From Enterobacteria phage vB_EcoS_Rogue1: DNA of 45,805 nucleotides. Positions 26,429-27,016 of the stretch are shown here, piece by piece (the stretch's first letter is position 1; each line of letters starts with the position of its first letter). The DNA is taken from sequence record NC_019718.1, one strand, 5' to 3'. Under the pieces are notes generated by a model. It was not told the DNA's origin. It did not search any database and worked only from the letters and a program-made list of their open reading frames with translations. The position numbers and the translations under genes are program-made.

Positions 26429-26468
26429 TTTGTATTCCTTAGTAAGTATGTTTCGTTTCGATGGAGTA

Positions 26469-26512
26469 ACTATAGCAAAGGCTGCCGCGGTAGTCTTTAG
26501 CAAATCGTGCTA
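26469..26512 (-). promoter_or_regulatory. palindromic box (26498-26512, TAGCA-AATCG-TGCTA) plus -10 TATAGT (complement of 26469-26474) and leader CATCGAAACGAAAC
   Basis: Box family member in minus orientation, driving the lipoprotein and tail protein genes. Confidence 0.55.
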
Positions 26513-26672
26513 TTTGATATACGCGTAACCGATGTAACTCGATGTATACAATCTCATCCGCGGAAAATTGTATACGCTTTTTACGCGCAGATACGCATTG
26601 GTTACATTTATAAATCCTTATATAATAAGGGTTTAGAGTATTATTATTATTATATATGTTACTATGTATACC
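26513..26672. repeat. AT-rich imperfect direct repeat, copy B (core 26617-26670, paralogue of 115-275); contains inverted repeat GTATACAAT-N14-ATTGTATAC (26548-26580)
   Basis: By-eye alignment with copy A; includes the (TTA)4 microsatellite. Confidence 0.6.
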
Positions 26673-26871
26673 TTGTAACTACTCTCTATAGCTATGTTGT
26701 TGTGTTTTTCTAAAAGACTATGTTTGATTTCCTGTTAAGGATTAAATGCATATAGATATAGATAGGGTGCAAATTTGGTGGATACATTAGTTACAAGAGT
26801 TACACTCAGCATCCATGCGGCGTGCGAAGTCTCAAAGCGTATTTGGGTGCGTTTTACACCGATATACAAAA

Positions 26872-26914
26872 TAGCACGAATAATCAAAACGTATACGACA
26901 TGATTGGGTATAGT
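26872..26914 (+). promoter_or_regulatory. palindromic box variant TAGCA-CGAAT-AATCA, 22-bp spacer, -10 TATAGT (26909-26914)
   Basis: Box family spacing conserved; long leader to the ATG at 27017. Confidence 0.45.
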
Positions 26915-27016
26915 GCACTTACAGGCAGCAATGGTGCTGCGTCTATCTACCAAAAAATGGTAGATACAAATGAAATCGCTCCTCAAACTCGGGAGCGGTA
27001 ACGAGGGAGAATAGAT

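Follow-up and report, generated by a model that had tools for sequence, protein, structure and literature searches.

The closest described systems are the rare two-site replication origins of SPP1 and P4. SPP1, a pac-type siphovirus of roughly 44 kb, carries two separated, similarly organised sequences, oriL and oriR, each pairing direct repeats with an AT-rich unwinding element; a long intergenic region contains one of them, and one and the same phage origin-binding protein binds both (PMC6316719). It has been proposed that oriR stalls replication forks and switches replication to concatemer synthesis. In the P4 record, 8-bp type-1 repeats (TGTTCACC) spaced by 9-11 bp are annotated in both ori and crr, the latter being labelled only 'cis required region for replication'. 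The P4 alpha protein binds these repeats, and crr is required in cis.

For the T1-like phages, recent genome papers state that a replication origin has not been found, and our search of the literature on the T1 origin, on start-site mapping and on transcriptomics in the Drexlerviridae returned nothing relevant. The only repeated non-coding element so far described in the family is a 21-nt intergenic repeat, aaATAGCACnnnTTGnTAAAA (PMC11447400). We analysed the whole 45,805-nt record NC_019718.1 (the window) of Enterobacteria phage vB_EcoS_Rogue1, a T1-like coliphage of the Drexlerviridae with a genome of about 45.8 kb, in which a preliminary description had pointed to two paralogous AT-rich regions and proposed for them a role in replication, packaging or transcription control.

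These two elements, here called A and B, resemble oriL and oriR in being two separated sites that combine direct repeats with AT-rich DNA of the unwinding type. They have no sequence similarity to the SPP1 sites, and whereas SPP1 oriL lies inside the initiator gene 38 and the SPP1 helicase is of the DnaB type with a loader, both Rogue1 sites fall between genes and an MCM-like protein (DUF3987) is the candidate helicase; the Rogue1 elements are candidates only, whose binding and origin activity we infer. With P4 ori and crr they have in common two loci kilobases apart, a common short repeat (8 bp in P4, about 6 bp in Rogue1) at 9-11 bp spacing and a replicon that encodes its own primase and helicase, and the annotation of the T1 primase notes a similarity to P4-type alpha primases. 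However, P4 alpha is a single primase-helicase polypeptide whereas the Rogue1 primase (307 aa) is encoded as a separate protein, and the Rogue1 boxes are TACGC/TTACA, not TGTTCACC. The boxes of phage TLS (GTGAACA/TGTTCAC) match 7 of the 8 bases of the P4 repeat, a 7-mer match that may be due to chance. The origins of lambda and of staphylococcal pathogenicity islands (SaPI), unlike the Rogue1 elements, lie inside or adjoin the initiator gene and occur once per genome, and the lambda iterons are about 19 bp long, as opposed to boxes of about 6 bp.

Results

Element B lies between the lipoprotein gene and the Rha-family gene, in a segment that includes the lowest G+C content of the genome (0.33, for the 400 nt at 26401-26800), and element A lies in the gap that separates the leftward and rightward early gene blocks on the circularly permuted map (Table 1). 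The neighbours of the two are the DUF7174 gene, small ORFs, the lipoprotein gene and the Rha-family gene, with the recE-erf recombination genes directly downstream of element B. In a formal alignment the similarity of the two regions was far above that of dinucleotide shuffles (Smith-Waterman score 76 vs 22.6 +/- 2.4, maximum 30), and the score was still 43 with the (TTA)n tract masked. The ungapped core of the repeat (204-271 vs 26603-26670, 68 nt) is 82% identical, and its inner 56 nt 84% identical by count on the ungapped alignment, which agrees with the first estimate of about 85% over about 55 bp. A looser similarity, with a 9-nt indel, extends from ATATACGCGTA (127 and 26518) to TGTATA (271 and 26670); the limits proposed earlier for an imperfect direct repeat (115-275 and 26513-26672) were thus fair, as were the microsatellite, found in both cores as (ATT)4, and the distance of about 26 kb, measured here as 26,399 nt in direct orientation. 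Between the right halves of the two gaps there is no significant similarity (score 20 vs 19.5 for shuffles). A duplication of a gene together with its control region was rejected, as the downstream DUF7174 and Rha-family proteins are unrelated. Gap B also contains ATAGATATAGATAG, at 26752-26765.

Table 1. Features of the two intergenic regions of Rogue1 and other loci discussed in the text (window coordinates unless another phage is named)
Feature	Position	Strand	Details
Gap A	45669-45805 + 1-554		on circularly permuted map
Gap B	26430-27016		587 bp
Element A, paralogous copy	127-271	+	in gap A
Element B: left boxes, phased box array, AT-rich core, right boxes	26518-26670	+	aligns to 127-271
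Four phased boxes of A	173-208	+	TTACAA 173, ATACGC 182, ATACAA 192, ATACAT 203
Four phased boxes of B	26572-26607	+	ATACGC 26572, TTACGC 26581, ATACGC 26591, TTACAT 26602
AT-rich core of A	213-272		(ATT)4 at 241-252; least stable 60-bp duplex segment of genome
AT-rich core of B	26605-26664		(ATT)4 at 26640-26651; second least stable 60-bp duplex segment of genome
Left boxes of B	26518-26549	+	ATATACGCGTAAC, CGATGTAAC, TCGATGTATAC
Boxes right of B core	26658-26683	+	TGTTACTATGTATACCTTGTAACTAC
Inverted repeat, 9-bp arms	26544-26575		GTATACAAT (26544-26552) / ATTGTATAC (26567-26575), around CCGCGG
Second array, gap A	403-430	+	GATACGGCG, GGTACGCCAT, GACTACACC
Second array, gap B, three 9-bp tandem units	26781-26807	+	GATACATTA, GTTACAAGA, GTTACACTC
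Promoter module, leftward lipoprotein/receptor-binding-protein operon	26450-26515	-	21-nt repeat 26494-26515; TATAGT -10 at 26470-26475 (+ strand coordinates); conserved leader
Promoter module, Rha-family gene	26869-26937	+	variant 21-nt repeat 26869-26889; TATAGT -10 26909-26914
Sigma-70-type promoter, DUF7174 gene	493-521	+	TTGATA-17-TGcTATAGT; 10/12 matches + extended -10
Promoter module (21-nt repeat), leftward early block	45687-45741	-	left boundary of gap A; third flanking 21-nt repeat copy, 45721-45742
GATTG/GATTTG repeat cluster	45750-45805 + 1-70		TLS 1-50; T1 1-60
Lipoprotein gene	26183-26428	-	PF24052
Rha-family gene	27017-27646	+	PF09669
First rightward gene, DUF7174	555-1103	+	adjoins gap A
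terS	3764-4279		far from both elements
Cro/YdaS-like helix-turn-helix protein, 157 aa	33864-34337		Pfam match below curated cutoff
MCM-like DUF3987 ATPase (helicase candidate)	41856-43448		gene start 2.2 kb from gap A

The two elements are built alike. Each has four boxes of 6 bp, [AT]TAC[GA]C-like, at 9-11 bp spacing (9, 10 and 11 bp in B), followed by an AT-rich tract with (ATT)4, and the boxes of A stand at -68, -59, -49 and -38 from this tract, offsets identical to those in B. Phased triple-box arrays occur exactly twice in the 45.8 kb, at 173 and 26572 and both on the plus strand, where shuffles give 0.005, and all the phased box pairs of the genome (6/6) fall within the two gaps. As sequences, the 6-bp boxes are short and loosely defined. 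When 60-bp segments of the whole genome are ranked by nearest-neighbour free energy, the cores of A (-55.8, z = 5.1) and B (-58.8, z = 4.5) come out as the least stable, the next unrelated segment having z = 3.3, a ranking that partly restates low G+C content. A second array is found at an analogous position in both gaps; its box pair in gap B was detected at 26791, the sequence similarity between the two arrays is not significant on its own, and counterparts are present in T1 (399-428, GATTAACAC-type units) and TLS (413-428, GTGAACA twice). The preliminary description had also reported an inverted repeat with 9-bp arms, which are indeed perfect although their coordinates had been given slightly off. 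The palindrome formed by the arms and CCGCGG is not kept in relatives, including the Rtp-type ones, and it is probably a by-product of the GTATAC/TATAC boxes; both the CCGCGG palindrome and the inverted repeat were rejected as structural features, neither being conserved.

The actual promoters of the gaps are the flanking modules with the 21-nt repeat and TATAGT, which stand over 100 bp away from the repeated core; between their -10 elements and the phased arrays and cores the distance is 100-300 bp. The elements are also distinct from the 21-nt repeat of the T1-like phages, as copies of the latter flank both of them, and the repeated core (204-271 and 26603-26670) does not match aaATAGCACnnnTTGnTAAAA and occurs only twice: the 21-nt module stands on about 16 operons, the A/B-type element on two only. 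The suggestion that each region heads a rightward block of genes did not hold, since in Rogue1 both lie between outward-facing promoter modules and in TLS there is no leftward gene beside copy B, which is located downstream of a GC-rich, terminator-like hairpin and its T-run, as read from the sequence. As element B is kept in TLS without the leftward operon, it is not merely the regulatory region of that operon.

Two related non-coding modules are also present in four relatives from three other Drexlerviridae subfamilies, among those examined, with the same architecture at the same two positions in four subfamilies. Most of 133 phage records (Rogunavirinae, Braunvirinae, Nouzillyvirus) match the segment 26513-26700 at 80% identity or more, and the region 100-300 with element A is 91-96% conserved in JK06, AHP42, BECP10, UDF157lw and e4/1c, even with diverged flanks; in e4/1c the element is conserved and its flanks are not. 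Outside phages, no match to the element was found in plasmids or in 5,426 E. coli genomes. One match in IMG/VR turned out to be unrelated low-complexity DNA and was dropped.

A BLAST search with copy A returns matches in 5 phages only. Rtp and AHP24 nevertheless have their own diverged second copy at the position of copy A, which BLAST misses, and T1 and TLS have an AT-rich, box-bearing element there. The absence of a copy from close relatives, suggested earlier as grounds for dismissing the repeat, would thus be misleading if judged by BLAST, and both positions hold an element in the relatives examined. Copy B, in the middle of the genome, is the better conserved of the two.

The box offsets -68, -59, -49 and -38 are fixed in all A and B copies, whether from Rogue1, e4/1c, Rtp, AHP24, TH21 or Phagiculus. 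In a 16-sequence alignment of relatives TATACGC, TTACGC, TACGC and GTTACA are invariant while the intervening columns vary, TGTATA and TGTAACTA on the right-hand side of the B core do not vary among 16 relatives, the left boxes of B hardly vary across three subfamilies, and the exact (ATT)4(AT)3 tract varies little or not at all between subfamilies. It is the same syntenic gaps that contain the two least stable genome segments in T1 (z = 5.8 and 5.5, next 3.8), TLS (z = 5.1 and 5.1, next 3.4) and JK06. Box sequence differs by lineage, and enriched motifs are common to both gaps of one genome: the two gaps hold 4/4 genome copies of TACGCGT in Rogue1, 6/6 copies of TGTAACA/TGTTACA in T1 and 4/8 copies of GTGAACA/TGTTCAC in TLS. 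The best match of each A copy is the B copy of its own genome, and A copies diverge faster than B copies (64-71% vs 75-97% identity). Both AT-rich regions are under selection, and they have the make-up of cis-acting control DNA. The best explanation is that the two repeats are a matched pair of cis-acting, putative protein-binding modules that are a common feature of T1-like phages.

Discussion

Among the functions first proposed, an origin-like role is the one we favour. Iteron-type origins carry at least three short direct repeats in helical phase, next to an AT-rich segment of unusually low stability, and keep the repeats while the spacers drift. Rogue1 has four such boxes in both copies, as does every relative examined, its cores rank first and second in the genome for instability, and the alignment of 16 sequences shows just this pattern of drift. 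We therefore propose, at a confidence somewhat short of even and from sequence comparison, that A and B are a pair of iteron-plus-unwinding-element sites for the start or control of phage DNA replication, which makes them the best candidates so far for the replication origins of T1-like phages. This proposal draws on the occurrence of phased triple-box arrays exactly twice, both next to the least stable DNA, on the fixed distance between boxes and tract, on the lineage-specific motifs found in both gaps together with the match of each A to the B of its own genome, on the same two unstable syntenic gaps in T1, TLS and JK06, on the distance of more than 100 bp between arrays and promoter modules, and on the two-site precedents of SPP1 and P4.

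A phage protein would bind the 6-bp boxes, which are about one helical turn apart and thus on the same face of the helix, and this binding would strain and open the adjacent (ATT)n/(TA)n tract, where the phage's own helicase and primase could be loaded. The MCM-like DUF3987 ATPase is the candidate for this binding; the end of its model is a region that matches winged-helix-like folds. Both modules may act as origins, or only one of them may, with the other serving as a partner site that is either required or modulating, like P4 ori/crr or SPP1 oriL/oriR. One might speculate further, with more doubt, on a Drexlerviridae two-site system of co-evolving modules 19-26 kb apart, with lineage-specific boxes read by the DUF3987 helicase or a partner, in which one module fires and the other is a cis partner or fork-stall site. 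The element upstream of recE-erf might then be the required cis partner, as in P4 ori/crr, or else forks might stall there and replication pass over to recombination-driven concatemer synthesis, the role suggested for SPP1 oriR.

Several observations count against a replication function. The usual, though not universal, position of an iteron origin is within or next to the initiator gene, and this is the case for neither A nor B: unlike at lambda ori and SPP1 oriL, there is no obvious initiator gene at or beside the elements. AT-rich gaps that contain repeated boxes are typical of promoters and operators as well, and the boxes resemble -35/-10 hexamers (TTTACA, TATACA). The similarity of A and B within a genome could come from gene conversion alone.

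The main and serious rival is transcription control, which we consider possible, if rather unlikely. On this view a phage regulator, such as the Cro-like 157-aa protein, would use the arrays as operators or activator sites, the AT-rich cores would serve as weak early promoters or as curved or UP-like DNA, and the elements would coordinate the outward-facing promoters of both gaps. The model is lambda OL and OR, two paralogous regulatory regions of one genome that govern outward early promoters through short repeated sites, which co-vary with a phage DNA-binding protein. In keeping with it, both elements lie between outward-facing promoter modules in T1 as in Rogue1, B directly adjoins, on its left side, the leftward promoter's 21-nt repeat (at about -55 to -90), the lineage-specific boxes common to both copies fit co-variation with a regulator, and the phage does encode a Cro/YdaS-like helix-turn-helix protein. 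Other annotators predicted promoters inside the core, and a 9/12 promoter-like site, TATACA-16-AATAAT, is found on the minus strand at the same place in both copies; promoter-like sites are, however, not above shuffles (1 vs 3.8; 3 vs 3.9), and a strong sigma-70 promoter in the cores was rejected, neither having a site of at least 10/12. The lambda operators, moreover, overlap the -35/-10 hexamers, whereas the Rogue1 arrays are 100-300 bp from the flanking -10 elements and flank the least stable DNA. Nor would one expect on this reading that only two operons have the element when about 16 carry the 21-nt module, or that element B of TLS follows a terminator-like hairpin without a divergent partner gene. 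Comparing the recognition helix of the Cro-like protein with box type was uninformative given the 86% overall identity of the Rogue1 and Rtp proteins, and windowed identity of the helicase, primase and regulator was likewise uninformative.

The remaining explanations are weaker. Packaging, with the elements as pac recognition sites for the terminase small subunit, A being the true pac and B a secondary or pseudo-pac, is improbable, and unlikely for copy B in particular. It is true that the pac sites of SPP1 and P1 have phased short repeats and bent AT-rich DNA, that the T1, TLS, Rtp and Rogue1 records all begin 100-250 bp left of element A and the JK06 record was opened inside element B, and that the SU57 authors put pac in the corresponding untranslated region. 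The pac end of TLS was mapped by restriction analysis to the gap that holds element A, but that analysis gave a single pac fragment (PMC11447400), and B, the better conserved copy, is in the middle of the genome, a place without any reported genome end. Both elements lie at a large distance from terS, and at the record junctions the GATTG/GATTTG repeat cluster makes a better candidate for pac. It is very improbable that the repeat is a low-complexity AT-rich spacer without specific function, duplicated or homogenised by the phage's recombination system. Rogue1 does encode RecE-like and Erf recombination proteins, and the faster divergence of the A copies would fit, but a neutral microsatellite would vary in length, whereas boxes and (ATT)4(AT)3 are near-invariant while spacers vary; the conservation of element A in e4/1c, unlike its flanks, and the same architecture at the same two positions in four subfamilies also argue for function. 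Most improbable of all, and already largely refuted, is that the repeat encodes a short product, either a structured RNA or a peptide rich in tyrosine. The repeat is crossed by ORFs 66-260 and 26507-26713, both reading ...YYYYYI, the same frame is open across (TAT)5 in both copies, and in copy A AAGGAGG lies 10 nt upstream of an ATG at 86. This ATG is replaced by ATA in JK06, AHP42 and BECP10, giving an in-frame TAG, 1-nt indels between Rogue1-type and Rtp-type copies break the frame, and copy B has no start signal; coding was rejected on the lost start in three relatives and the frame-shifting indels. A structured RNA was rejected as well, since the folding z-scores are only mild (about -2.2, on both strands), compensatory changes are found in 0/29 predicted base pairs (16 sequences), the consensus fold reaches only -12.9 kcal/mol, and Rfam gave nothing, whether at the gathering threshold or at E = 1.

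T1 is a classic T-phage and a notorious laboratory and fermentation contaminant, and the elements offer specific candidate origin modules for its group: two short modules with defined boxes and cores, which hold in the four subfamilies examined. If the replication reading is right, the location where T1 starts replication would be settled, and it would become clear how replication is started by a phage whose primase is separate from its MCM-like helicase; an example with a Gram-negative host would join the rare two-site origin systems, and parts would be available for T1-based replicons or phage-resistance designs. It would also exemplify two far-apart cis elements that evolve in step, and a two-site system would explain why the elements stay matched within each genome. 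Were they instead transcription-control regions, the control DNA of two early-gene intergenic regions would have been identified, where almost nothing was known before.

GC skew along the genome tracks gene orientation only, without an origin signal. The lack of an enrichment in host DnaA or IHF sites also counts against a replication function. DnaA boxes (TTATNCACA) form no cluster, with one 1-mismatch box in A (163-171), none in B and 43 genome-wide against 48.9 expected, and IHF sites are not enriched in the elements. A perfect IHF-like site, TATCAACCTTTTA, which is absent from the Rogue1-type copies, is found in most Rtp-type B copies.

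Two related non-coding elements in the Rogue1 genome

The complete genome of this T1-like siphophage (Drexlerviridae, subfamily Rogunavirinae; 45,805 bp) contains two AT-rich modules, elements A and B, which together are a real, selected, paired cis element, here present in four subfamilies, and of which we found no description in the literature searched. The preliminary description of an imperfect direct repeat is confirmed: 204-271 and 26603-26670 align ungapped over 68 nt at 82% identity (repeat finder, family D12), with weaker similarity from ATATACGCGTA (127 / 26518) through TGTATA (271 / 26670). 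The resemblance is beyond chance (whole-gap local alignment score of 76, versus 22.6 ± 2.4, maximum 30, in dinucleotide shuffles) and the gap-gap score was still 43 after masking of the (TTA)n tract. The inverted repeat with 9-bp arms (26544-26552 / 26567-26575) and the ATAGAT short repeats (26752-26765) that had also been pointed out were found as well. The right halves of gaps A and B, the intergenic regions holding the elements, have no significant similarity.

Copy A is intergenic, as is copy B, and promoter modules border both gaps. The genes downstream of A and B are mutually unrelated, so that the duplication is confined to non-coding DNA. Base 1 of the Rogue1 record is homologous to base 1 of T1, and the tRNA-Arg gene (3387-3462) has coordinates identical to those published for vB_EcoS_Rogue1. 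JK06 is about 96% identical to Rogue1 over 1-20000, and AHP24 and AHS24 are 99% identical to it around the gap B repeat.

Coordinates of the gaps, elements and associated repeats (Rogue1 unless stated)
Feature	Position	Description
Gap A	45669-45805 + 1-554	roughly 690 bp, circularly permuted map; leftward early block / rightward block from 555
Gap B	26430-27016	left, minus-strand phage lipoprotein gene (PF24052); right, plus-strand Rha-family gene (PF09669)
Boxes of element A	starts 173, 182, 192, 203	
Boxes of element B	starts 26572, 26581, 26591, 26602	
Second array, gap A	403-430	three 9-bp tandem units, about 130-190 bp further right
Second array, gap B	26781-26807	three 9-bp tandem units, about 130-190 bp further right
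21-nt repeat, plus strand	1186, 2049, 12048, 19332, 28870, 34350, 36746, 37431, 38117, 39405, 39669	
21-nt repeat, minus strand	26496, 43728, 43926, 44888, 45723	
Hairpin 1, Rha-family leader	26925-26940	GCAGC..GCTGC
Hairpin 2, Rha-family leader	26944-26966	TATCTACC..GGTAGATA
Hairpin 3, Rha-family leader	26977-26997	CGCTCC..GGAGCG
GATTG-type cluster, Rogue1	45750-45805 + 1-70	
GATTG-type cluster, T1 (L007)	1-60	
GATTG-type cluster, TLS (L027)	49880-49902 + 1-50	

Anatomy of the elements

Four [AT]TAC[GA]C-like boxes of 6 bp are found in each copy. They lie 68, 59, 49 and 38 nt upstream of (ATT)4, with about one helical turn between boxes, and these offsets are identical in all the A and B copies of Rogue1, e4/1c, Rtp, AHP24, TH21 and Phagiculus. 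Triple boxes in phase occur at two sites genome-wide, A and B, on one strand (0.005 in shuffles). The two gaps hold all the phased box pairs of the genome (6/6) and are strongly enriched in ATACGC (7 of 17 genome copies), TATACG (6/17) and TACGCGT (4/4). On their right side the boxes are followed by an AT-rich core. In a nearest-neighbour free-energy ranking of 60-bp segments, the lowest stability of the genome falls at 213-272 (z = 5.1) and the second lowest at 26605-26664 (z = 4.5; next segment 3.3), an order unchanged with 40-bp and 100-bp windows, and no 400-nt windows of the genome are poorer in G+C than the two holding the cores. A perfect palindrome, TTCCTACA-T-TGTAGGAA (330-346), separates element A from the gene 555 promoter and is followed by its partial direct copy CTACCTTGTAGGAAAA (352-367); the region 330-367 is kept in the five phages with a Rogue1-type copy A.

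Conservation in related phages

Element B (26513-26700) has matches in 133 phage records, Rtp (Braunvirinae) and TH21 (Nouzillyvirus) among them, and identity is at least 80% in most. Where annotated loci were inspected, in AHP24, Rtp and ETEP102, it is found just past the lipoprotein / receptor-binding-protein genes (role of this locus from PMC8594841) and upstream of recombination genes. Across 16 aligned sequences, (ATT)4(AT)3 and the boxes are invariant or nearly so, and it is the inter-box spacers and the CCGCGG palindrome that vary. BLAST detected copy A in five phages only, where it is conserved above its flanks. A degenerate pattern scan of IMG/VR located in Rtp a second copy of its own (record bases 100-330), which lies in the gap equivalent to that of Rogue1 and aligns with the Rtp B copy over about 330 nt, and AHP24, without copy A by BLAST, carries an Rtp-A-like copy in the equivalent gap. 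In T1, TTACGCC/TATAC boxes spaced 10 bp apart precede a (TA)n core (180-290), and the two syntenic gaps contain the two least stable genome segments of T1, TLS and JK06. The leftward operon at B is missing from TLS, which has kept element B, behind a terminator-like hairpin and T-run and upstream of recE. The element had no match in plasmids or E. coli genomes.

Most Rtp-type B copies (sequences L003, L004, L006, L011, L015-L017, L022, L024, L025) match the IHF consensus perfectly, with TATCAACCTTTTA, in the stretch that separates the boxes from the (ATT)n tract. The IHF-like site of TH21, TATCAACCTTCTA, has one mismatch; Rogue1-type copies have TAATAAGGGTTTA, with two, and a small palindrome, CCTTAT-ATA-ATAAGG, instead. 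The JK06 record (L002) ends inside element B (at about 26527 of Rogue1), and many genes are fragmented in its gene table (terminase, tape measure, helicase), which suggests sequencing errors in an old record.

Matched pairs within a genome

The enriched motifs are lineage-specific, yet common to both gaps of one genome. The two gaps hold 6 of the 6 copies of TGTAACA/TGTTACA in T1 and 4 of the 8 copies of GTGAACA/TGTTCAC in TLS, whose A and B also have in common GTTCAC..GAATCC..CCGGCGTA and AAAAAGAACAAA. In an all-against-all scoring of 230-nt elements, the best partner of each A copy was the B of its own genome (Rogue1 76, with a small margin over 72 and 69; Rtp 141; T1 60, from a partly low-complexity alignment; TLS 48), and no A copy scored best against the positional A copy of another phage. 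Such matching would reflect gene conversion between A and B, or else adaptation of both to a single binding protein. The TLS boxes GTGAACA / TGTTCAC (413-428, 28769, 28997) equal the 7-base core of the type-1 origin repeat of satellite phage P4, TGTTCACC (L028; 9310-9413, 4291-4590), an identity that may be coincidental; the primase of T1 carries a P4-alpha-like annotation.

Possible functions

Of the roles initially put forward (origin, packaging or transcription control), we tentatively rank first an origin or cis-replication function, a possibility that goes beyond the anatomy. Phased conserved boxes and a uniquely unstable AT tract, present twice and kept matched, are arranged as in iteron-plus-unwinding-element replication origins, and the phage needs its own start site, none having been found for T1-like phages in published analyses. 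According to the literature these phages have no DNA polymerase gene; what they do possess are genes for a primase that includes a zinc ribbon, a RadD-like helicase and a 530-aa DUF3987 protein. SPP1 has two iteron/unwinding sites bound by one initiator (PMC6316719), and in the P4 record an identical 8-bp repeat, at 9-11 bp spacing, is found in ori and crr, 4.7 kb apart. The putative role would be of a kind already known, an origin-like iteron/unwinding module or an operator region, and the elements make the long-open question of where T1-like replication starts directly testable.

The main rival, only somewhat less probable, is that the elements control transcription from upstream, in the manner of lambda OL/OR. 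The elements do lie between outward promoters, the boxes resemble hexamers, and co-variation with a regulator would fit, but there are two sites only, they are distant from the promoters, and the TLS arrangement argues against it. Promoter-like sites in the A/B regions were not above their frequency in shuffles, and neither core had a promoter site scoring at least 10/12. A packaging role is unlikely for B. In TLS, pac was mapped to the gap corresponding to gap A (PMC11447400), and in SU57 it was inferred there; a better pac candidate than element A is the cluster of GATTG/GATTTG repeats 100-250 bp to its left, where the record is joined. GATTG / GATGG / GATTTG repeats and TTGC...GCAA half-palindromes lie exactly at the record openings of T1, TLS and Rogue1.

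A structured RNA was rejected (no Rfam match, 0/29 compensatory base-pair changes, folding z only -2.2), as was coding: the ORFs across the repeat, tyrosine-rich on account of (TAT)5, lack conservation, three relatives have ATA in place of the ATG at 86, and indels disrupt the frame. Consensus sites for DnaA and IHF showed no enrichment.

Promoter modules and other repeats

The modules bordering the gaps consist of a 21-nt repeat (aaATAGCACnnnTTGnTAAAA; ATAGCACnnnnnTGCTAAA) and a TATAGT -10 (repeat families D3-D9). This repeat, already reported for T1-like phages (PMC11447400), has 18 matches in the genome, versus 0.78 expected, about 16 of which precede genes. The A/B core is distinct from it and >100 bp away from the flanking promoters; the gene 555 promoter differs, being of the sigma-70 type (TTGATA-17-TGcTATAGT). 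TATAGT comes 22 nt after the repeat, then a common leader, CATCGAAAC...GAGAG. An imperfect palindrome, TAGCA-N5-TGCTA, is centred near -42 counted from the -10, which is class II activator-site geometry and not that of a -35 hexamer. The leader of the Rha-family gene, roughly 96 nt, has three short hairpins within 26925-26997.

A 40-nt inverted repeat (1101-1140 / 43402-43441, 83% identity) creates a 28-codon ORF (1103-1189; MFDFSEDKLTDEQ...), whose first 13 codons also open the DUF3987 helicase gene (MIIMFDFNDDKLTVEQ...), and a 38-nt one (1710-1747 / 45286-45323) also links gene-start regions of both outward early blocks. Elsewhere, a structural protein (ORF 9564-11009), named gp21 in the Rogue1 publication, has long collagen-like Gly-X-Y repeats with a 9-nt period (9897-10570) and a local G+C of up to 0.60.
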